Positions 4,245 to 31,993 of a stretch of 32,000 nucleotides of DNA are shown one piece after another (the stretch's first letter is position 1; every line of letters starts with the position of its first letter). The position numbers and the translations under genes are program-made. The stretch comes from Thermoproteus tenax Kra 1 (lineage in GTDB: Archaea > Thermoproteota > Thermoprotei > Thermoproteales > Thermoproteaceae), in the NCBI RefSeq assembly GCF_000253055.1, contig NC_016070.1:1590001-1622000 (forward strand), written 5' to 3'. The notes below the pieces were generated by a model. That model did not search any database. It had not been told where the DNA came from and saw nothing but the letters and a program-made list of their open reading frames with translations.

Positions 4245-5714
4245 TTGAAGAGGTGCTCCATGAACCTCGATAAATTCTTCGGAATCTCCGAGCGCGGCTC
4301 GACGGTGGGAAGGGAGGTGCTCGCAGGCCTCACGACGTTTTTAGCGATGTCCTATATACTCTTCGTCAACCCGGCTATACTGACGGGGGGCTTCCAAGTC
4401 GCGCTCCAAGCCGCGTTCCACATGAGCGCTCAACAAGTACAACAGACCTATGGGCCCCTCTTATCCAGCGTTCAGCTCAGCTTCACGATAGCTACGGCGC
4501 TTGCTGCAGGCTTTGCGACGCTCGTCATGGCCCTCTACGCCCGTATGCCGTTCGGCCTCGCGCCGGGAATGGGCGAGAACGCCTTTATAGGCTATACTAT
4601 AATTCCTGCGTTCCTCTCAGTCTTGTTGCACCAGAAGCTTGTGCCGATAGCCGATGCGCCATTATTCGCAATATATCTGGCGTTGGTCTCAGTGTTCTTT
4701 AACGGCATCCTCTTCTTAATATTCTCAATAGGGGGTATTCGTGAGTTCATAATAAACTCTGTGCCTGAGTCCATCAAGTTGGGCATCTCCATAGGGATCG
4801 GCCTATTTATCTCCCTCATAGGTCTAGCAAATATAGGTCTAGTGACCGCCGGCCAGGGAACTCCCATAACTATCAACTGGCAGGCATTCACGTCGGCGAC
4901 GCTCTATCTGGGCATCGCCAGTGCCATCATCGCGGGCGCCCTCTTGGCGTTTAGAGTGCCCGGCGCATTCCTCATAGCGATTATTGCGACGACCCTAGCC
5001 GGCCTCCCGCTGGGCCTCGTCTCTCCGCCGCCCTATACTCCAACATACAATCTGACTACTTCTATATTGAACAACTTGCCCGGCTCCTTCTATCTCTACT
5101 TTGCGCTCTTCGGGATAGGCTTCCCCATAGCGTTTTCGTTGTTCCTAGTGGACTTCTTCGACGGTTTAGGCACTATAACAGGCTTGGCCATGAAGGCGGG
5201 GCTTGTGAGGAACGGCAAGATTGTCAACCTCAACAGAGCGTTGATCTCAGACTCTCTGGCCTCAATATTTGCGCCGTTCTTCGGCACATCGACTACAGTT
5301 GTCTATATTGAGAGCGCCACCGGCATAGAGCAGGGTGGGAGAACCGGCTTGACGGCGCTTGTAATATCTCTGCTCTTCTTCTCCTCCATAGCGCTGGCGC
5401 CGTTATTCGCGGCCGTGCCCGCCTACGCCACAGGCGGCGTGTTAACCCTCGTAGGCCTCCTCTTCTTGGGCATGGCCGGCAGACTGGTCGCCATTGACGA
5501 CTACACTGAGACTATACCTGCCTTTATGGCCATAATGGGCATACCCTTCACGTTCAGCATCACTGCCGGCATAGGGCTCGGCTTTATATTCTATGTATTA
5601 TTGAAGGCCGCCACCGGGAGGTTCAGAGATCTAAAGCCGGGCATTGTTCTCATCGCTATTCTGTTCGCAATATACTTCGGGCTTACTACATATTTTGAGA
5701 CGACGGGCTACTAG
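4245..5714 (+). CDS. AzgA/PbuG-type purine (adenine/guanine/hypoxanthine) permease, NCS2 family
   Basis: 489-aa polytopic membrane protein. LDKFFGISERGSTVGREVLAGLTTFLAMSYILFVNP is the characteristic N-terminus of this family. The likely true start is the MNLDKFF Met at ~4260. Confidence 0.8.
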   Translation: MKRCSMNLDKFFGISERGSTVGREVLAGLTTFLAMSYILFVNPAILTGGFQVALQAAFHMSAQQVQQTYGPLLSSVQLSFTIATALAAGFATLVMALYARMPFGLAPGMGENAFIGYTIIPAFLSVLLHQKLVPIADAPLFAIYLALVSVFFNGILFLIFSIGGIREFIINSVPESIKLGISIGIGLFISLIGLANIGLVTAGQGTPITINWQAFTSATLYLGIASAIIAGALLAFRVPGAFLIAIIATTLAGLPLGLVSPPPYTPTYNLTTSILNNLPGSFYLYFALFGIGFPIAFSLFLVDFFDGLGTITGLAMKAGLVRNGKIVNLNRALISDSLASIFAPFFGTSTTVVYIESATGIEQGGRTGLTALVISLLFFSSIALAPLFAAVPAYATGGVLTLVGLLFLGMAGRLVAIDDYTETIPAFMAIMGIPFTFSITAGIGLGFIFYVLLKAATGRFRDLKPGIVLIAILFAIYFGLTTYFETTGY

Positions 5715-5734
5715 CGCTTTAAAAGATCCCCCTT

Positions 5735-6625
5735 TTGAGCTACGTGCCCCAGAGGCCGTTGGGGGTTATACTCGCCGGCGGGAGGGGGTCTCGCTTCGGA
5801 GATCCTCAGAAGTGCCTCAGGCCGGTCTGTGGAGTCCCCATGATTATGAGAGTGGTCGCCTCGTTACAGCCCTATGTCTCACGGCTCGTGGTGGCTACGA
5901 CGCGCGGCCACGCCGCAGTGGCGTGGCTCGCACGCACTTGGGACATGGAGGTGATCTACACTGAGGGCGGGGGATACGAGCGCGATATATCGGCGCTCCT
6001 CAAGTTGGCCCCCGTCGTGATAGCCTCGTGCGATCTGCCCTTCCTAGAGCCCCACCATGTGGCCGAATTGATCGAGAACGATGTTTTCACAAGCGCAGTC
6101 AAGGACGGAGAATACATAGGGCTTACCTGGGCTCCCAACGGCGATCTCAGTAAGTGGACCAATATGGATCTGGACGTCGAGGATGTGGACGACCGGCGTA
6201 AGTGGCTCCAGTTGAGCTCATCGTGCCAGAAGCCGACGTATCCCATAGTCGTAGATCCGCGCACTCTTCTGCCCCATGAGGACGTCGAGGGGTTGTTGGA
6301 GATATCGTGGGCCGTGCGCCCCGTGGTAGTCGACGTTTGGACTTGCACTGTGCTTGACGGACACCACAGACTGGCCTCCCTCGCCGCCAGAGGGCTACCT
6401 GTCCCAGTCGTGCCCATGGACTACGCAAGCCTAGATGTGTTCACGCCTGACGGCCTATATTTCGACAAACTTGCGGTGATCTCATCGGCTTCGCGCGGAG
6501 AGAGACTGGGCCGTAGAGTCACCAGACACTTCTACGGCGGAAAACACGTCTCAAGCCTAAACCATGTGGAAATGAGCCTGGGGGAACTCGCCAATATTGC
6601 GCCGCTTAGGTGCGAGCCTCTATAG
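5735..6625 (+). CDS. cobY: Fusion protein: CobY-like adenosylcobinamide-phosphate guanylyltransferase (N-terminal) plus a ParB/Srx-fold domain with a DGHHR motif (C-terminal)
   Basis: The N-terminal GVILAGGRGSRFG...KCL...ASCDLPF matches the MobA/CobY NTP-transferase pattern. The C-terminal ~120 aa (IVVDPRTLLPHEDV...VVDVWTCTVLDGHHRLASLAARGLPVPVVPMDY) matches the ParB/sulfiredoxin-fold signature. TATA GCTTTAAAAG at ~5717 favours the GTG at 5744 as a leaderless start. Confidence 0.65.
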   Translation: MSYVPQRPLGVILAGGRGSRFGDPQKCLRPVCGVPMIMRVVASLQPYVSRLVVATTRGHAAVAWLARTWDMEVIYTEGGGYERDISALLKLAPVVIASCDLPFLEPHHVAELIENDVFTSAVKDGEYIGLTWAPNGDLSKWTNMDLDVEDVDDRRKWLQLSSSCQKPTYPIVVDPRTLLPHEDVEGLLEISWAVRPVVVDVWTCTVLDGHHRLASLAARGLPVPVVPMDYASLDVFTPDGLYFDKLAVISSASRGERLGRRVTRHFYGGKHVSSLNHVEMSLGELANIAPLRCEPL

Positions 6626-7113
6626 ATATAACTGGGACAGCTTCCGAGCTTGTGTTGTTAGCATACACCGGCGATGGAAAGGGGAAGACCACGGCGGCCT
6701 TGGGCGTCTTGCTCAGGGCTTGGGGACACGGCATGAGGACGTTGGCGGTCTTCTTGATGAAGACGCCTAGATATATGAACGACTACGTGGGCGAATATAA
6801 AGCGCTGAAGAGGTTGGGCATCGACGCGCTCTATCTAGAGGATCACAAAAGGCCCGAGGAGCTCCTCGAGGAGGCTTTGGCCAGAGCCTCCGACTACGAT
6901 CTAGTCATACTGGACGAATTCAATTACGCCGTCCGTCAAGGATTCATTAAGCCCTCGGAGGTGAGGAGGCTCCTAGGCCTCAAACCCCACGTTATAATTA
7001 CCGGCAACTACCTCTACGACGAACTCCTCTTGGCGGACCTCGTGTCAGAGGTGAAGTCTGTTAAACACTACTACAAAAGCGGCGTCGTCGGCGTAAGAGG
7101 CATTGATTGGTAA
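6610..7113 (+). CDS. cobA: Cob(I)yrinic acid a,c-diamide / corrinoid adenosyltransferase (CobA/CobO/BtuR type)
   Basis: P-loop YTGDGKGKTTAALG and the DEFNYA motif. GTG 6610 overlaps the cobY end; GTG 6652 is an alternative start. Confidence 0.8.
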   Translation: MRASIDITGTASELVLLAYTGDGKGKTTAALGVLLRAWGHGMRTLAVFLMKTPRYMNDYVGEYKALKRLGIDALYLEDHKRPEELLEEALARASDYDLVILDEFNYAVRQGFIKPSEVRRLLGLKPHVIITGNYLYDELLLADLVSEVKSVKHYYKSGVVGVRGIDW

Positions 7114-7142: not shown

Positions 7143-8135
7143 ATGAGTACGACGTTTGTAATAGTGGTGGGCACGACCGACATCTCGCTCATACCTGGCA
7201 TAACTGTGGCGGGCGCATCGCCGGAGCTTACACACTATACGCCGGCGGCAGACGTGGAGTACCTGTTGACGGGCAAGCCCAGGAGCATTTCGGCGATACC
7301 GGTCACGCCCGAGGGGATACCTACGCCCGCTCTAGTGACGAGGGCTCTGACGTACGATGTGGCTAAGCTGGTCGCCTTTGCGGGAGGCAGAGTCAAGCCC
7401 AAGGTGCCGTATATAGATCTTGGCGGAGAGCCCGGCGGAGATTTCAGGAGAGGTCCCGCGCTATCTATCGAGGCTGTTGAAAGGATCCTGGACAGTGGAA
7501 AGATTCTGGGGCGCGAGCTGGCCAGACTTGGCGAAGTCTTCATAGGAGAATCAATACCGGGGGGCACCACGACTGCAATGGCCATTCTAGTGGCGCTGGG
7601 CTACGACGCATGGGGCAAAACCTCCTCCGCAGGTCCCCACAATCCGAAGGATCTGAAAATATCTGTAGTACGCGAGGCTCTGGCGAGGGCGGGTAAAATC
7701 GATGGTCCTATAGAGGCGCTTGCGGAGGTGGGCGACCCAGTCCACGTGGGCGTGGCCGCTATCGCTCTGGGCGTCCTCGAGGGGGGCGGCTCGCCTGTGC
7801 TCGCAGGCGGTACCCAAATGGTGGCGGCCGCCGCCATAATTAAGGCTCTGGGGGGCGACATCGGCAGAATAACTATAGCAACTACCGGTTGGATAGCCGA
7901 CGATAAAAGCGCTGATTTCTTCGGCCTAGCCAAAGAGGTTGGCGTAGCCAACATAGTGGTAACTAGAGTGAGATTCTCCGATTCCAGATTCTCCGGCATC
8001 AGAGCATACGATGCAGGCTATGTAAAGGAGGGCGTGGGCATGGGCGGAGCACTATATATAGCACAGAGAAAGAATTTGCCTATAATTCAACTTATTGATA
8101 AAGAATATGAAAAACTAATTGGTAATAATAATTGA
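7143..8135 (+). CDS. cobT: Archaeal CobT-type nicotinate-nucleotide:dimethylbenzimidazole phosphoribosyltransferase (UPF0284-like)
   Basis: 330 aa. VVGTTDISLIPGITVAGASPE and GESIPGGTTTA are analogous to the CobT GIGNTT active-site loop. It lies within the cob cluster. Confidence 0.75.
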   Translation: MSTTFVIVVGTTDISLIPGITVAGASPELTHYTPAADVEYLLTGKPRSISAIPVTPEGIPTPALVTRALTYDVAKLVAFAGGRVKPKVPYIDLGGEPGGDFRRGPALSIEAVERILDSGKILGRELARLGEVFIGESIPGGTTTAMAILVALGYDAWGKTSSAGPHNPKDLKISVVREALARAGKIDGPIEALAEVGDPVHVGVAAIALGVLEGGGSPVLAGGTQMVAAAAIIKALGGDIGRITIATTGWIADDKSADFFGLAKEVGVANIVVTRVRFSDSRFSGIRAYDAGYVKEGVGMGGALYIAQRKNLPIIQLIDKEYEKLIGNNN

Positions 8136-8220
8136 TTTTTAGTTTATATTTTATATTGAGGATAATCACAGCTCCCAACATAGTAGGCGAAGTTTTCATC
8201 TTTAAAAATGGAATTCCGAA

Positions 8221-9399
8221 ATGACTTCCATGAAGAAAGTAGTAATCATAGGGGGCGGGATAGCGGGTATGACAGTAGCAAAGACGTTGATCGAGGGCAA
8301 AGCGAATGTGGAGATAACAGTGCTCAACTCTTCGCCGCACTACTTCTCGGGGCCTAGCAGGCCTCTGTTGCTCACGGGCGAGCAAAGCCTGGACAGAATA
8401 GTCAGAGGCTATGAGGAGGCCATGGTCCGCGGCGTTAGGGTTATAACTGGGACTGTGTTCTCGATAGACCCAGATAATAGAAAGGTGAAGTACGTTGGAG
8501 GATATGCCTCAAGCGGGGGAACGGGCGAGCTCGCCTACGACTATCTAGTGGTAGCGCCGGGCGTTGTGTTGGATGGCTCCAACATAGTGGGCTACGATAA
8601 ATACAGACACAAAGTGGCCAATGTCTACGACCCCGGCAGAGTGCATGTGTTGAAAAATAGAGTGTGGAGCGCGGAAAGAGGGCGCATTGTAGTCTATGCC
8701 CCCAAGGCGCCCTACCGTTGTGCGCCTGCGCCGACCGAGACGGCGCTGTTGATAGATGCTGTGCTCCGCAATAGGGGAGTTCGCAACAGGTTTGAGATTA
8801 TACATATAGATGCCAACGACAAGACTCAGCCGCCAGTTATAGCAGATGTAGTATCCCAGATCTACCAAAACCAGGGAATACAGCTGGTGACCAACCAAGA
8901 GATCGTCGAAATAACGGATACCGAGGTAGTGACTAAGTCTGGGGAGAGGTACAAATACGACATATTGGCCCTGTTAGAGCCTAACAGAGCCCCTAAGTTC
9001 ATCGAAGAGGCCGGCCTCGGCAAAGCCTTCGTAGACGTGAGGGGACCTCAAGATCTGAGACATCCAAAATACGACGACATACTTGCTGCGGGCGATGCAG
9101 CGGCTTTGCCGTTCCCCAAGAACCAGGAGATAGCCTTTGAGAGCGCTCTATTCGCCGCTAACAAGATACTCGAGATGGAGGGCTCCGCCTATAGGGCATC
9201 GGTCCAGTACGCCTTCGTTGGATGGGCTTACGTGGGCAACCCCGAGGGAAGGCTCGAGACCCTCTCGGTGAGATTCGGCCTGGACTTCACCAGCCAACCG
9301 CCGAAGCCGACCAAGGACCCACAACCTAAGAGAGAATATACGGCCGCCAAGGACTCTTGGGAGCAGAGCTATTTAGCCAACCTTTTCGGCTATAAGTAG
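8221..9399 (+). CDS. FAD-dependent oxidoreductase, sulfide:quinone reductase-like (paralog of the fragment at 2..460)
   Basis: N-terminal Rossmann motif [14 protein letters not shown] and an AAGDAA motif near the C-terminus. 392 aa. It has its own AT-rich promoter region with TATA CTTTAAAAATGG. Confidence 0.7.
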
Positions 9400-9553: not shown

Positions 9554-10474
9554 GTGCACGGAGGCTCCTCTTGGGCTACGCCCAATCCTTTGGATTTCAG
9601 CGATAACCTCAACCCTTTGGGCCCTCCCCGGGCTCTGCTCGACCTAATCGCGGAGGCGGTGGAGAGGGGAGTCCACTTATGGTTCCCAGCACACTTGGCC
9701 GAAGAGACTCTATCTCAATACGAGGGCGTCGAAGTCACCGCGTTCAACGGGGCCACGGAGGCTCTGCTCGCCGTCCTCGTCTCGTTGAGGCCCAAGCGCT
9801 TGCTCCTTCCGTGGCCCACCTACGGCGATTACGAAAGGATCGGCCGCCATATAGGCGTTGACGTAGTGAAGGGCCCTCTATCCAGCTTAGTGGAGACGGC
9901 GGGCAACGGCGATGTCTTGATATTGTGTAACCCCAACAATCCTACCGGCAACCTAATGAGGCGCGACGAGCTCCTCGATCTGGACAGAGCCCTTAGGGCC
10001 CGGGGGGCCTACTTAGTCGTCGATGAGTCTTTCATCGACTTCGTTAAGGCCGAGAGCGCCGCGCCCGATGTACTCGTCGTTAAGTCCTATGGGAAGATAC
10101 TGGCCGTGCCCGGCCTAAGAATAGGCGCCGCGCTCGGCCGCATCAAGGGCGAGGTCAAGGCCCCCTGGCGCCTCAACTCGGTGGCCGACTACGCCCTATT
10201 TCATCTGGGCTCCGATGCGCTTAAACGACACAGAGAGGCCACTCGCGCCTATGTAGCCTCAGAGGCGCCTAGAGTTATGAGCCGGCTCGCCGCATGCGCC
10301 GAGGTTCACAGCTCAGCCCTCCACTTCTTTGTGGCGAAGCTCTCCGCCGAGCCCAGAGTTAAGGTTAGACCGCTCGACGATTTGGGTATGCGCGGATACT
10401 ACAGGATCTCTATAAAAGATAGGGAGAAGAACGAAGTCTTGATAAAATCGATATGCGCTGCCTCAGAGCGTTAG
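9554..10474 (+). CDS. cobD: L-threonine-O-3-phosphate decarboxylase (CobD; HisC-like class I/II aminotransferase fold)
   Basis: NPNNPTG and the PLP-lysine context SYGKILAVPGLRIG. GTG start with TATA CATAAATAG ~20 nt upstream. The functional call relies on cob-cluster context. Confidence 0.65.
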   Translation: MHGGSSWATPNPLDFSDNLNPLGPPRALLDLIAEAVERGVHLWFPAHLAEETLSQYEGVEVTAFNGATEALLAVLVSLRPKRLLLPWPTYGDYERIGRHIGVDVVKGPLSSLVETAGNGDVLILCNPNNPTGNLMRRDELLDLDRALRARGAYLVVDESFIDFVKAESAAPDVLVVKSYGKILAVPGLRIGAALGRIKGEVKAPWRLNSVADYALFHLGSDALKRHREATRAYVASEAPRVMSRLAACAEVHSSALHFFVAKLSAEPRVKVRPLDDLGMRGYYRISIKDREKNEVLIKSICAASER

Positions 10475-11103
10475 TGAGCTTCTTTACAATTTTCCCTGTC
10501 AAAGCTGAGCTGGACTTCTCTTGCGCTTGGGCTCTGCCCTACGTAGTTGCCCCTCTCACGGGCGGGCTTGCCGCCTTGGCATTTTTCTATTTAGGCCCTC
10601 TGCCCTCCTACCTCCTCCTACTCTTGCTCACGGGCCTCAATCACTTAGATGGGCTCGCCGATACGGCAGACGCCCTGATGGTGCGCGAGAGATCGAGGGC
10701 TAGGCAAGTTCTTGAAGATCCGAGGAGGGGCACTGCCGGCATCTTCGCAGTTGTGGCATCTGTGGCGTTGGCATTATTCTATCTTAAGAGCCCCTGGCAA
10801 CTGCTCTTCGCAGAGCTCTTCTCTAAGGCCGTCACAGTGATCCTAGCCTCGTTCTCCCGGCCATTCAAGGAGGGCCTCGGCTCGACCTTCATAGGCTCAG
10901 TGAAACGCAAGTGGCCTCTCGCTGTCCCCGCCCTCGCCGTAGTCTCCATTGAGTACCCGTGGGCCACTCTATGCTCCACGGCGCTTTCGTTGTTCTTCTA
11001 CTATATAGCGTATAAACACTTGGGCGGCGCAAACGGAGATGTGCTCGGCTATCTGTTGGAGCTGAGCAGAGTGTTCTTTATAGTCTCTAGCGCTCGACTT
11101 TAG
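10453..11103 (+). CDS. cobS: Adenosylcobinamide-GDP ribazoletransferase (cobalamin synthase)
   Basis: Polytopic membrane protein with the FFTIFPV and LNHLDGLADTADAL motifs of CobS/CobV. It overlaps the cobD end. Confidence 0.85.
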   Translation: MRCLRALVSFFTIFPVKAELDFSCAWALPYVVAPLTGGLAALAFFYLGPLPSYLLLLLLTGLNHLDGLADTADALMVRERSRARQVLEDPRRGTAGIFAVVASVALALFYLKSPWQLLFAELFSKAVTVILASFSRPFKEGLGSTFIGSVKRKWPLAVPALAVVSIEYPWATLCSTALSLFFYYIAYKHLGGANGDVLGYLLELSRVFFIVSSARL

Positions 11104-11386
11104 CTATCTTGCCCTCTATGGTCAACTCTTGGTCCATCCTTCTGTCTATCTTTATAATATAGTCTAGACGTTTGACGCCCATGGCCTCAAGCCTGGCCTC
11201 GATTCTCTTGAGTATCTCGGCCAACGTAGCGTAGTCGTCCAGCTCTATGTCGGTGAACCCCGCCGCGGTCCTGTACTTAACGCCGAGCTCCCTTAGGACC
11301 TCGGTCGCCGCCCTGACGTAGGACGAGAGGTGCGTCGAGCCGGTCCCCAGAGGCGTCACTGATAGGCTCACTACCATCTTGGCCAT
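11087..11386 (-). CDS. MTH1187/YkoF-like (DUF77/UPF0045) small protein
   Basis: Only the last 100 codons of the 264-aa track ORF look protein-like (MAKMVVSLSVTPLGTGSTHLSSYV...IKIDRR). The upstream part is antisense to 11457..11912. Confidence 0.65.
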   Translation of the reverse strand: MAKMVVSLSVTPLGTGSTHLSSYVRAATEVLRELGVKYRTAAGFTDIELDDYATLAEILKRIEARLEAMGVKRLDYIIKIDRRMDQELTIEGKIAKVER

Positions 11387-11456
11387 GTGATGAGAATAGT
11401 CCCCCTTTTTAGCGTTTATCCTCTCTAAAAATTTAAATAGATAAATAATTACTATT

Positions 11457-11912
11457 ATGAGCTGGAGACCTGTAGAAAACATAGAAAGGGACCTTGAAAA
11501 AGCGGAGGAAAACTCTGCATTGTACGGCGGAATATTAGTGAAAGGCGGCAACGTTGTTGAGATAAGTACGGGCGTCATAATTGCGGCGAGGTTCGCCGAC
11601 AAGCTACGCAGAGCCGCCTTTGCCGCGTTCAAAAATATGGTGAAACAAGAGGAGATACTGAAGTCTGTGGCGGATCTTAACAGGTCGTTATACGAAAAGC
11701 TAGTGGCAATGGGCATAGGGAAGCTCGACATAATCAGGATATCGGTCGAGGCAAAGGTCGAGGACGGCAGACTGACCTTCGGAGAGCCCCGCGTTGAACA
11801 CTTCGTGCCCAGCACTAGGGTGAAGGAGCTCCAAGACCAACTCGAGAGCTGTAAGGCTCTGTTGCAAGGCTTGAAGAGCAAGTTAGAGGACGTCCTAAAG
11901 GAGCTGGCCTAA
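11457..11912 (+). CDS. Conserved-looking hypothetical protein with a C-terminal coiled coil
   Basis: 151 aa with balanced K/E-rich composition. TATA TTTAAATAG lies ~25 nt upstream of the ATG (leaderless). It is divergent from the DUF77 gene. Confidence 0.5.
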   Translation: MSWRPVENIERDLEKAEENSALYGGILVKGGNVVEISTGVIIAARFADKLRRAAFAAFKNMVKQEEILKSVADLNRSLYEKLVAMGIGKLDIIRISVEAKVEDGRLTFGEPRVEHFVPSTRVKELQDQLESCKALLQGLKSKLEDVLKELA

Positions 11913-26910: not shown

Positions 26911-27100
26911 CCCTCTCCCCGCCCTAAAGGGCGGGGCTTCCCCCGTTCACCCGGCCTTTGCGGCTCGGGCTCATGTGGGGGTTCTGGGCGGGGTCACGGC
27001 GCCCCATCCCCGGCCTCTCGTTAAGGCCAGGGCTATGTTGATCGCCGCGTTTAAGTCTCTGTTGTATCTAAGTCCACATCTTGGGCACCTAAACTCTCTA
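26891..27100 (-). ncRNA. Predicted omega (right-end) RNA of the TnpB element, including ~16 nt of flanking guide
   Basis: Inferred by analogy with characterised TnpB systems, where the RNA spans the tnpB 3' end, the right-end hairpin and the flank. Here that covers the GC-rich tnpB 3' end, hairpin 26917-26936 and flank 26906-26891. The 5' limit is arbitrary. Confidence 0.3.
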
Positions 27101-28251
27101 CCTTTCACCTCATCAACGGTGAATCCGCACCTATGGCATGTTCTACTGGTGTTCTTCGGCTTTACGTACACAATCGGTATTCCGCTGAGGAGCGCTTTGT
27201 ACTCAATGTACTTCTGGAGCTTCCTAAAGCTCCACGAGTGCAACCTCCTATTCAGTAGTTTGTTGTCTCCACTCATCCTATCTCTAATCCCCTCTAAGTC
27301 CTCCATGACGATGACTGGTTTGGGGAACTGCTTGGCATACTCAACAACCCCCTTAGCTATTTCGTGGAGCATCTGATTGACTGTTCTGCCCTCCTTACTG
27401 CCAATCCTCTTAACCAGGTCAAGTCTCTTCTTTCTCTGCAGGCTACGCCTAATGTGAGCGTATTTGCCGCGCACAAACCTAATCCTCTGCCCACCCCAGA
27501 ACTGCCCCCTCATTGGCCTGCTCGGGCTGTCCCTAGATATGGCCGCGGCCGCAACTGCGTTCCACTCGCCGAGGTCTACGCCTATGAGCGTCTTCGCCTC
27601 CTCAGCACCGTAGGTGACAACGTTCTTCTTAATCTTGAAGTGAGCGAACCAAACGCCGTCTCTCTTAACCAGCTCCACACTGTCGAGCTCCCACAGCCCC
27701 TGCAGGGTCTCCTCAATGAACTGCTTCTGTCTGCTACCGAAAGCTAGTGGTAGCGCTATCCTAACACCTCTTCTCAAGCTAACGACAAGCCAGTAAGGAG
27801 TTAGCTTAGTGCTGGACTTATCGAGCTTGAACGCCCTCCTATCTAGACGAATAGATACCCTCTTAACCGCTGGCCTATCAGCCTTGGCTCTGCCCTCTGC
27901 CTTACGCTCACTAAAGCTCTTGAGAATCTCAACGGCCTTGTCCCTCGCAGTCTGTATCAGCGCAGTGTTTAGGCTAAACCTCTTTTTGGCTTCCTCATAC
28001 GTTAGCTCGTGAAGCTTCGTCTTCGACGTGATGCCGAAGCCCACATACCATCTAACCAACTTGAGGTACTCTTCAAGAGCTCTGTTGAGCTCAAGGGTCT
28101 TGCCCTTGTTAGGCTCAATCACCTTTCCAACAACCGTGAGAACGACCGAGGTCATAGGGGAACATCCCCTCATAGATCGAGTTCAACGGTCAACCTAAAA
28201 GCTTAACGCCGCATAGTGCCATCCCCGCCCTAAAGGGCGAGGTTTTCAGAT
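26907..28251 (-). mobile_element. IS200/IS605-family insertion sequence carrying only tnpB (IS1341-like), 1345 bp
   Basis: Left-end hairpin at 28223-28242, preceded on the minus strand by TTAT (28255-28252). Right-end hairpin CCCCGCCC-TAAA-GGGCGGGG at 26917-26936, followed by the terminal GGTCAC (26912-26907). No tnpA and no terminal inverted repeats or target duplication, as expected for this family. Confidence 0.8.
26971..28173 (-). CDS. tnpB: TnpB (IS605 OrfB-type RNA-guided endonuclease), apparently intact
   Basis: RuvC-I D (IGVDLGEWN), RuvC-II E (VIVMEDLEG), Zn ribbon CHRCG..(x13)..CPRCG, RuvC-III D (YNRDLNAAINIA). The probable true start is the second Met (MTSVVLTV, 28155). Confidence 0.9.
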   Translation of the reverse strand: MRGCSPMTSVVLTVVGKVIEPNKGKTLELNRALEEYLKLVRWYVGFGITSKTKLHELTYEEAKKRFSLNTALIQTARDKAVEILKSFSERKAEGRAKADRPAVKRVSIRLDRRAFKLDKSSTKLTPYWLVVSLRRGVRIALPLAFGSRQKQFIEETLQGLWELDSVELVKRDGVWFAHFKIKKNVVTYGAEEAKTLIGVDLGEWNAVAAAAISRDSPSRPMRGQFWGGQRIRFVRGKYAHIRRSLQRKKRLDLVKRIGSKEGRTVNQMLHEIAKGVVEYAKQFPKPVIVMEDLEGIRDRMSGDNKLLNRRLHSWSFRKLQKYIEYKALLSGIPIVYVKPKNTSRTCHRCGFTVDEVKGREFRCPRCGLRYNRDLNAAINIALALTRGRGWGAVTPPRTPT

Positions 28252-31472: not shown

Positions 31473-31919
31473 ATGGAGTTCCCCGATATAGAGCTGAGGG
31501 CCCACACAGGTGAGACCGTGAGGCCTAGGTCCTTTGAAAGGGCTGTAGTATATTTTTTCCCAAAGGCGTTCACATCGGGATGCACGCGCGAGGCCATACG
31601 ATTCAACGAGCTCTACGATGAGTTTAAGGCCTTGGGCGTGGAGATCTTCGGGATCTCTACAGATAAAATAGACACTTTAAGAAAGTTCGCCGAAAAGTAC
31701 CAGTTGAAGTTCAGATTGTTGAGCGATGAGGGAGGAAATCTGGCGAGACAGTTAGGCATACAGAGGCCCAGCGGCTCGGCCGAGAGGGTCACTTATATCT
31801 TGGAGAGAGGGCGCGTGGTGGAGGTTCTTCGCAATCTCAGAAGCGCCGATCAACACGCAGATAGAGCACTGGAGGTCGCCAGAAGGGCGTTCAAGGCAGG
31901 CGGACCCGGTGGGATTTGA
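31473..31919 (+). CDS. bcp: Peroxiredoxin, Bcp type
   Basis: FPKAFTSGCTRE peroxidatic-Cys context in a thioredoxin fold. The last 19 nt overlap the convergent tRNA-Arg. Confidence 0.85.
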   Translation: MEFPDIELRAHTGETVRPRSFERAVVYFFPKAFTSGCTREAIRFNELYDEFKALGVEIFGISTDKIDTLRKFAEKYQLKFRLLSDEGGNLARQLGIQRPSGSAERVTYILERGRVVEVLRNLRSADQHADRALEVARRAFKAGGPGGI

Positions 31920-31993
31920 ACCCACGACCTACGGCTCTCGGCGGCGCCGGCCACCGCAGGCCGCCGCTCTGATCCAGGCTGAGCTACGGGTCC
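31901..31993 (-). tRNA. tRNA-Arg(GCG) with a 17-nt canonical (37/38) intron
   Basis: Minus strand: GGACCCG-UA-GCUC-AGCCUGGAUCA-GAGC-G-GCGGC-CUGCGG[UGGCCGGCGCCGCCGAG]A-GCCGU-AGGUC-GUGGG-UUCAAAU-CCCAC-CGGGUCC-G. 93 nt = 76 + 17. Confidence 0.85.

Follow-up and report, generated by a model that had tools for sequence, protein, structure and literature searches.

A CobY-type nucleotidyltransferase fused to a truncated SerK-like domain as a candidate L-threonine kinase for cobamide synthesis in Thermoproteus and Pyrobaculum

Within a stretch of 32,000 nucleotides from Thermoproteus tenax Kra 1 (contig NC_016070.1, positions 1,590,001 to 1,622,000; the whole of this 32-kb stretch is referred to here as the window), a single gene joins a CobY-type nucleotidyltransferase to a second domain that we assign to the free-serine-kinase branch of the ParB/sulfiredoxin (ParB/Srx) fold. 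We propose that this fusion is a bifunctional CobY/L-threonine kinase that feeds the decarboxylase CobD, a proposal to which we give an even chance. From fold, motif conservation, and gene context, we infer a kinase activity, its phosphate donor, and its acceptor, threonine. L-threonine phosphate is required for the phosphorylated aminopropanol linker of B12, and the C-terminal domain, called mini-SerK here, is the strongest candidate available for the L-threonine kinase that these archaea appear to lack, giving Thermoproteus and Pyrobaculum a concrete candidate with named catalytic residues. If correct, it would stand in, without homology, for PduX, BluE, and the kinase activity of Methanosarcina CobD, and would constitute a further, structurally unrelated class of L-threonine kinase and the first threonine-specific ParB/Srx kinase. 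The kinase family as such is known; the minimal architecture and the fusion partner are new, and the substrate is probably new as well. In the literature outside subscription journals, no paper was found in which CobY or an L-threonine kinase is tied to a domain of the ParB/Srx or SerK type. PMC3189178, considered as literature on CobY in the Thermoproteales, was set aside, as the match was to the word "cobyrinic," and PMC10504309 probably matched for a similar reason.

The fusion gene, its domains, and its motifs are located in the window as follows.

5735..6625, plus strand: fusion gene (CobY-type nucleotidyltransferase and mini-SerK domain), 296 amino acids from TTG 5735
5717..5723, plus strand: TTTAAAA, a TATA-box-like element about 24 nucleotides upstream of GTG 5744, tentatively assigned from the sequence
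5735..6229, plus strand: N-terminal MobA/CobY-like nucleotidyltransferase domain, residues ~1-165 (PF12804; match to 3rsb; AlphaFold2 [AF2] predicted local distance difference test [pLDDT] 93.7)
5771-5800, plus strand: glycine-rich nucleoside triphosphate (NTP) loop LAGGRGSRFG, residues 13-22 of the N-terminal domain
6230..6622, plus strand: C-terminal mini-SerK domain, residues 166-296, ParB/Srx fold, free-serine-kinase branch
6272..6286, plus strand: PHEDV motif, in which Glu182 (nucleotides 6278-6280) aligns with SerK Glu30 in the hidden Markov model (HMM) alignment
6350..6382, plus strand: VLDGHHRLASL motif, in which Asp208-Arg212 align with SerK Asp69-Arg73
6467..6535, plus strand: K245...V..A..G...TRH(265).Y block, which aligns with SerK 204-226 (TKEEV...KTTRHV)

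The gene had been placed at exactly this position (5735..6625, plus strand) in the initial annotation, in agreement with the listing of open reading frames (ORFs), and its two motifs lie in the part of the protein to which they had been assigned (PHEDV, residues 180-184; VLDGHHRLASL, residues 206-216). In the database, the protein has 293 amino acids, matching a GTG start at 5744, which is likely to be the true start. The sequence of the TTTAAAA element at 5717-5723 suggests an archaeal TATA box, with which the fusion gene may have its own promoter and a leaderless mRNA. Public annotations cover the N-terminal domain alone. The two-domain division first read from the sequence, a CobY/MobA-type N-terminal half followed by a ParB/Srx-fold C-terminal half, is recovered with PF12804 and 3rsb for the former and with Foldseek for the latter. 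Fourteen full-length homologs were collected, all 260-297 amino acids long and, where a source is named, from Thermoproteus or Pyrobaculum. The full-length AF2 model has a predicted template modeling (pTM) score of 0.92.

Since Pfam returns no match for the C-terminal half alone, even at E ≤ 10, the kinship of this domain becomes apparent only with a family profile or a structure. When a profile of 14 C-terminal halves was compared with 177,635 sequences of the PDB, it gave four distinct matches, all of them to the free serine kinase SerK or to 1vk1, namely, wild-type SerK (5x0b; E 7.7e-5), the E30A mutant, the E30Q mutant, and the P. furiosus homolog 1vk1, and it aligned to SerK in three collinear blocks. 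Among 18,950 NCBIfam models, NF053625 (SerK) was the only one matched recurrently, by 9 of the 14 members with a best E of 1.1e-5; the window protein scores 13.1 bits against an equivalog cut-off of 380 and so lies below the level for formal assignment, and no match to NF033589 (SbnI) was seen among the fused domains in NCBIfam. The C-terminal domain was also modeled separately (AF2 pLDDT 95.9), because Foldseek results for the full-length model are dominated by nucleotidyltransferases. With this model, the top nine PDB matches in Foldseek are SerK, 1vk1, and SbnI (probability 1.00; query-normalized template modeling [TM] score 0.55-0.70), canonical ParB and Noc trail at E ~0.3 and TM ~0.33, and sulfiredoxin has no entry among the 48 matches at E ≤ 10. 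Within the ParB/Srx fold, the extra domain belongs with the SerK/SbnI kinases and not with DNA-binding ParB. The ParB/Srx-type core recognized earlier is therefore upheld and, by profile, NCBIfam, and Foldseek alike, placed in the SerK/SbnI branch. The structural comparison with SerK, Srx, and ParB that had been proposed alongside it, with a DNA-binding ParB model named as the result that would count against the kinase idea, has SerK and SbnI at the top, ParB weakly matched, and Srx absent.

The resemblance to SerK is partial. SerK residues ~99-203, a second subdomain of ~105 amino acids, have no counterpart in the fusion, where eight profile positions stand against 105, and the entire domain comprises 131 amino acids; it is for these reasons a truncated relative, or mini-SerK, and not a canonical SerK, which amends the earlier description while leaving its fold assignment in place. 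SerK of T. kodakarensis (TK0378, ADP-dependent; 5x0b) and 1vk1 share the ParB/Srx fold with the fused domain, and the Glu of the PHE motif, DGHHR...DY, and the K...TTRH block are collinear between SerK and the fusion, although the proteins differ in size (242 versus 131 amino acids), are only ~14% identical in structural alignments, and occur in different contexts, SerK in cysteine/serine metabolism without fusion to CobY and the fused domain in cobamide synthesis. SbnI, an ATP-dependent free serine kinase of Staphylococcus (5uje, 5ujd, and 6nr6; Foldseek probability 1.00, query-normalized TM 0.55-0.67), is bacterial, longer than the fused domain, and has an additional regulatory role.

Other assignments within the fold were considered and rejected. 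For canonical ParB, neither a helix-turn-helix DNA-binding domain nor a C-terminal dimerization domain was detected, the motif is DGHHR, and the TM score is ~0.33; a ParB-like nuclease was ruled out by the motifs and the structural ranking. For sulfiredoxin, the motif is again DGHHR, with no cysteine where the active-site cysteine of GCHR is expected, and Foldseek returned no Srx.

The residues on which a kinase reading depends are strongly conserved. SerK Glu30, mutated in PDB entries 5x0e/5x0g (E30A) and 5x0j/5x0k (E30Q), is the Glu of the PHE motif, as KPHEQ of the wild type is KPHQQ in the E30Q entry, and it corresponds to Glu182 of the fusion; likewise, Lys245 and His265 align with SerK Lys205 and His225. 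Glu182 and DGHHR are invariant in 14 fused sequences, and in 242 stand-alone relatives (described below) the Glu is retained in 99% and the motifs in ≥99%. Conservation in the C-terminal half of the 14-homolog alignment follows YP..V, L.PHE, P..V..T..VLDGHHR, DY, K..V..A, and T.H.Y..HVS, and an HMM-anchored alignment that sets 18 fused domains beside 242 stand-alone ones reduces this to a common core of L..HE, P..VD..T, LDGHHR, DY, K..V..A..G, and H. Only three positions (Y169, P170, and Y267) are specific to the fusions, from which it follows that the active site has not been remodeled. Beyond these, the fused clade has two loop deletions relative to the stand-alone proteins and deviates from them around PPKTTRH, where Thermoproteus has G[VR]R[AV]TRH and Pyrobaculum has PPKTTWH.

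Additional insight is gained from the wider family. A HMMER search with the domain profile retrieved 1,190 representatives (clustered at 50% identity) at E ≤ 1e-3, of which four reached E ≤ 1e-30: three full-length CobY fusions and P0015, which looks like an N-terminally truncated CobY fusion. The remaining matches are mostly stand-alone proteins of 120-180 amino acids with the same motifs, found in Micrarchaeota, Bathyarchaeia, Thermoplasmatota, Halobacteriales, and Deltaproteobacteria, a few of which carry the JGI label "L-serine kinase (ADP)." Stand-alone members such as P0021, P0201, and P0171 have the same ~130-amino-acid architecture and conserved core as the fused domain, and the H.Y.G.HVS tail of the latter is also present in P0021, P0025, and P0026; they differ in lacking CobY and in having O-phosphoserine consumers as neighbors, and the fused clade forms a separate branch. 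Six stand-alone loci were sampled for gene context. In locus L004, the mini-SerK gene (5001-5390) lies directly upstream of the gene for a CysK/CysM-family synthase and close to those for cystathionine gamma-synthase and CysS, and in L006 (mini-SerK at 5001-5453) it lies directly upstream of a TrpB-like (TrpB2-type) pyridoxal phosphate (PLP) enzyme; TrpB2 enzymes use O-phosphoserine. At the P0171 locus, it stands beside a 530-amino-acid class II aminoacyl-tRNA synthetase and a SepSecS/Aminotran_5 protein, tentatively the pair SepRS/SepCysS. One further mini-SerK gene adjoins gcvH/gcvP, and two haloarchaeal ones adjoin an MFS transporter, an uninformative context. In P0022, moreover, a mini-SerK is fused directly to a CysK/M-type PLP enzyme. 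As sampled members adjoin or are fused to users of O-phosphoserine, the minimal domain is probably a working hydroxy-amino-acid kinase, and by analogy these contexts point to a free-serine kinase supplying enzymes that use O-phospho-amino acids. This suggests that free-serine kinases are distributed far more widely than the Thermococcales and Desulfurococcales of the original SerK description, with mini-SerKs forming a large, mostly unannotated family of ~130 amino acids beside O-phosphoserine consumers in DPANN, Bathyarchaeia, and other lineages.

Several members of this family show further domain combinations. Mini-SerK domains are joined to a cytidylyltransferase-like domain (P0122, a second case of a mini-SerK with a nucleotidyltransferase), to a Pyr_excise/pyrimidine-dimer glycosylase domain (P0105), and to S-adenosylmethionine methyltransferases (P0034 and P0138). 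P0018, P0019, P0020, P0023, and P0027 (333-649 amino acids) contain low-complexity linkers and at least two tandem mini-SerK domains, each domain preceded by DPTSYF[FY][KR][YF][RH]; these tandem proteins may be eukaryotic (protist-like).

The fusion itself is confined to a narrow group. It is present in at least 11 genomes, six of Thermoproteus/Thermoproteaceae and five of Pyrobaculum, a count that is a lower bound, as the scan took one genome per species and depended on peptide patterns; it was seen in Thermoproteus and Pyrobaculum alone. The fused clade is monophyletic in a neighbor-joining tree, and its members are diverse, with overall identities of 42-61%. Being limited to two genera, the fusion cannot fill the L-threonine kinase gap of archaea generally, haloarchaea included, for which a 2021 review (PMC8305020) still recorded EC 2.7.1.177 as missing from the pathway. 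Two fragments of the C-terminal domain, P0024 (97 amino acids) and P0029 (136 amino acids), are degenerate, with mutated motifs (DGRYR, DGRHG, and SIHEE) and internal deletions, and are closest to the Pyrobaculum forms; their sequences suggest pseudogenization of the fused C-terminal domain in some lineages.

For the N-terminal half, PF12804 (NTP_transf_3) matches residues 10-115 (E 1.4e-19; 71 bits against a cut-off of 27), and the nearest solved relative in a PDB sequence search is CobY of M. jannaschii (3rsb/2mzb), with E ~1e-3 from the single sequence and 4e-11 from the family profile. In Foldseek, the full-length model aligns to 3rsb with a target-normalized TM score of 0.67. CobY (MJ1117; 3rsb and 2mzb) shares with this domain the glycine-rich loop and the cob context (cobS, cobD, and cobA), whereas the canonical protein is a single domain of ~196 amino acids and the N-terminal domain of the fusion is divergent and carries the extra C-terminal domain. 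Clustering with cobS, cobD, cobA, and cbiB, as used to recognize CobY, is found for the fusion, and no second CobY/CobU candidate occurs in the cluster.

The cobamide genes that follow the fusion in the window are the following.

6610..7113, plus strand: cobA, ATP:corrinoid adenosyltransferase (PF02572, E 2.4e-35)
7143..8135, plus strand: archaeal-type cobT (NF003368, 454.9 bits, cut-off 423; TIGR00303, 324 bits, cut-off 240)
9554..10474, plus strand: cobD, L-threonine-phosphate decarboxylase, short form (TIGR01140, E 5.8e-45, residues 8-297 of 306)
10453..11103, plus strand: cobS, adenosylcobinamide-GDP ribazoletransferase (PF02654, E 8e-38; TIGR00317, 110.5 bits, cut-off 110)

All four neighbors named in the initial annotation are thus identified by Pfam and NCBIfam. 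The listed cobA ORF overlaps the fusion gene by 16 nucleotides, and the two genes are adjacent at 12 of 15 related loci compared, as they are in the window. CobS uses the product of the CobY domain, and CobD presumably consumes that of the kinase. CobD of the window has 306 amino acids without an extra domain and is short (290-306 amino acids) at every locus where it was seen. The earlier statement that neither cbiB nor cbiZ is present holds for the 32-kb window in tblastn searches with the proteins of relatives, with the addition that in most relatives, at 11 of 15 related loci compared, cbiZ belongs to this cluster. In every lineage sampled, the fusion sits among cob/cbi genes, so that the lack of co-occurrence with cobamide genes that had been named as an adverse outcome was not encountered. 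The Thermoproteus-type order is permease, fusion, cobA, (cobT), (cbiZ), a sulfide:quinone reductase (SQR)-like gene, cobD, and cobS, and in the Pyrobaculum type the fusion lies inside a cbi/cob cluster (cobA, cbiZ-pgpA, cobD, cbiG, cobS, and cbiB) or after cbiG. The cluster of the window may consist of more than one transcription unit, as the SQR-like gene interrupts it and TATA-like elements precede both the fusion gene and cobD.

The most complete cluster, L008, contains cobA, the fusion, cbiZ-pgpA, cobD, cbiG, cobS, cbiB, and a cobT-like gene, which provide candidates for adenosylation, CbiZ, CobD, CbiB, guanylyltransfer, CobS, CobT, and a PgpA-type phosphatase. The L-threonine kinase is the sole linker or nucleotide-loop step there without a candidate gene, and mini-SerK is the sole domain in that cluster without an assigned function. 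It can therefore be hypothesized how the two halves would act. The CobY half would be the GTP:adenosylcobinamide-phosphate guanylyltransferase, while the mini-SerK half would phosphorylate free L-threonine to L-threonine-O-3-phosphate, with a nucleotide (ADP or ATP) seated in the DGHHR pocket and Glu182 acting as the base on the beta-hydroxyl. The short CobD encoded next door would convert L-threonine-O-3-phosphate to aminopropanol phosphate, CbiB would join this to adenosylcobyric acid, and the CobY half would then activate the resulting adenosylcobinamide phosphate with GMP. SbnI supplies O-phosphoserine to the PLP enzyme of a dedicated cluster, and the same logic is proposed here for mini-SerK and CobD; by analogy, the recurring pattern of a kinase, an O-phospho-amino acid, and its consumer would favor the L-threonine kinase, as CobD is the PLP-dependent user of an O-phospho-amino acid in the cob pathway. 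In archaea, the salvage of cobinamide by way of CbiZ and CbiB depends on aminopropanol phosphate while dispensing with a cobinamide kinase (PMC3541065), and given this dependence, cbiZ in most relatives also counts for the proposal.

The only characterized L-threonine kinases cited in the reviews consulted are the bacterial PduX and BluE (PMC7242693) and CobD of M. mazei, which titles cited in PMC9986279 describe as a bifunctional L-threonine kinase/decarboxylase. PduX, a GHMP kinase, would share its reaction with mini-SerK, but neither GHMP nor any other kinase family appears in the Pfam and NCBIfam scans, and these scans, rather than a direct sequence comparison, also set BluE and M. mazei CobD apart from the fusion. 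In M. mazei the L-threonine kinase is joined to the CobD activity, whereas the candidate kinase domain of the fusion is joined to CobY.

Several observations weigh against an L-threonine kinase. SerK of T. kodakarensis rejects threonine (PMC5120207), for which reason a change of specificity would be needed, and the contexts of the stand-alone relatives point to serine. The position of SerK Arg224 is Arg in Thermoproteus and Trp in Pyrobaculum, and the conserved Thr preceding it is often Ala or Val, variation in the sequences that would be odd if those residues bind the amino acid substrate. The kinase is fused to CobY and not to the next enzyme of the pathway; fusions of non-consecutive cob steps do exist, as in CbiZ-PgpA (L008) and the CobBC model NF053748. 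The N-terminal domain scores 30 bits on the CobY equivalog NF045495, far short of its cut-off of 250, and 43.8 bits on the MobA model TIGR02665, above its CobY score yet below that model's own cut-off, which leaves the best PDB match and the gene context as the basis for calling it CobY. Finally, the apparent absence of another kinase is a statement about loci of ±10 kb. Phosphorylation of L-threonine by the fused domain, as first suggested from the sequence, thus finds partial support in the kinase-branch fold, the motifs, and the cob context, with threonine as the presumed substrate.

Among other explanations, it is conceivable, if unlikely, that mini-SerK acts on the corrinoid itself, phosphorylating the aminopropanol hydroxyl of adenosylcobinamide and passing adenosylcobinamide phosphate to the CobY half. 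The target hydroxyl is chemically the same as that of L-threonine, fused domains often perform consecutive steps, and bacterial CobU/CobP, a cobinamide kinase/guanylyltransferase to which CobY is described as non-homologous, is a precedent (PMC7242693) for combining two such activities in a single chain, possibly the same two. The high pTM of the full-length model suggests a fixed arrangement of the two domains, P0122 joins a mini-SerK to a cytidylyltransferase-like domain, and the window lacks cbiZ. Yet cbiZ, the archaeal alternative to a cobinamide kinase, is present in those 11 of 15 related loci, the core is nearly identical to that of relatives with small substrates and shows no remodeling for a corrinoid of >1 kDa, and the L-threonine kinase gap would stay unfilled. 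If true, this explanation would describe a convergent archaeal analogue of CobU built from ParB/Srx and MobA folds, bring a corrinoid substrate to the ParB/Srx fold, and contradict the view that archaea have no cobinamide kinase and rely on CbiZ for salvage. We give a similarly small chance to a non-catalytic module, in which the domain would bind a nucleotide or mediate oligomerization or regulation of CobY, its resemblance to kinases being ancestral. ParB-CTPase folds are widespread NTP-binding switches with many lineage-specific fusions (PMC12704722), SerK's insert of ~105 amino acids is absent, and degenerate fragments (P0024 and P0029) occur in some Pyrobaculum; even so, the kinase-family residues, the catalytic Glu among them, are invariant in the fused clade despite identities of 42-61%, and stand-alone proteins of the same architecture occur in metabolic-kinase contexts. 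That 2025 survey of ParB-CTPase fusions defined multidomain proteins by PF02195, which the fused C-terminal domain does not reach, and mentions no nucleotidyltransferase or cobamide partners (PMC12704722).

Two readings with other small-molecule substrates appear less probable still. Retention of the ancestral L-serine, with O-phosphoserine converted to ethanolamine phosphate by the CobD homolog (for norcobamides) or directed to cysteine metabolism, is very unlikely in our view, even though SerK, SbnI, and the stand-alone contexts all indicate serine and the active-site core of the fused domain is unchanged from a family whose SerK rejects threonine (PMC5120207). Norcobamides are rare, aminopropanol linkers being the rule, and both the strict cob context and the CobY fusion speak against a general role in cysteine synthesis; the fused clade, moreover, is monophyletic with its own loop deletions and PPKTTRH changes, which is compatible with a change of specificity. 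The norcobamide variant does have a precedent. The CobD homolog of Sulfurospirillum decarboxylates L-serine phosphate for norcobamide synthesis. Only a slim chance is given to another small alcohol, either free (R)-1-amino-2-propanol released by CbiZ, which would yield aminopropanol phosphate, or alpha-ribazole in a CblS-like salvage. CbiZ, which releases aminopropanol, neighbors the fusion in most loci, and cobT and cobS are neighbors in a pathway whose nucleotide loop needs alpha-ribazole phosphate, whereas such substrates lack the amino acid carboxylate and are unprecedented in the family, salvage of this kind would leave CobD superfluous although it is kept, and the domain is intact in a window without cbiZ. 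The L-threonine kinase accordingly remains the reading that we prefer.

Two further genes of the region accompany the cob genes.

4245-5714, plus strand: NCS2/xanthine-uracil-type permease, upstream of the fusion with a gap of 20 nucleotides
8221-9399, plus strand: sulfide:quinone-reductase-like flavoprotein (Pyr_redox_2 and FCSD_central; the nearest NCBIfam model is type III SQR, below cut-off)

The permease is kept at 71-77% identity in eight of nine related Thermoproteus-type loci and could import a purine or benzimidazole base as the lower ligand. At six of nine related Thermoproteus-type loci compared, the cob cluster includes the SQR-like gene, whose identity is 82-84% versus 54-77% for the flanking cob genes. 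Between cobT and the SQR-like gene, the window has 85 nucleotides (8136-8220) and no cbiZ, while the same slot in Thermoproteus relatives is occupied by cobT-cbiZ (L012, L014, and L015) or by cbiZ without cobT (L001, L017, and L019); the cluster is evidently changeable at this point. The CbiZ-PgpA fusion of Pyrobaculum-type clusters (L008, 9005-10036; L022, 10849-11826; L023, 1054-2040) joins adenosylcobinamide amidohydrolase to a PgpA-type phosphatase domain, two non-consecutive steps of cobamide metabolism.

Elsewhere in the window, an Rfam scan found no riboswitch, its sole match being a tRNA gene of ~95 nucleotides at 31899-31993 on the minus strand. This gene matches the 71-position Rfam model from end to end, its anticodon was not named by ARAGORN, and it probably contains an intron; tRNA introns are common in Thermoproteales. 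An ORF of 400 amino acids at 26971-28173 on the minus strand carries a Cas12f1-like/TnpB TNB domain (E 2e-24) and is probably a TnpB element of the IS200/IS605 family. The listed 264-amino-acid ORF at 11087-11881 on the minus strand matches Thiamine_BP at residues 171-263 only and is over-extended, as relatives carry a gene of ~100 amino acids there; as listed, it overlaps a ThermoDBP-related gene on the opposite strand (11457-11912, plus strand).

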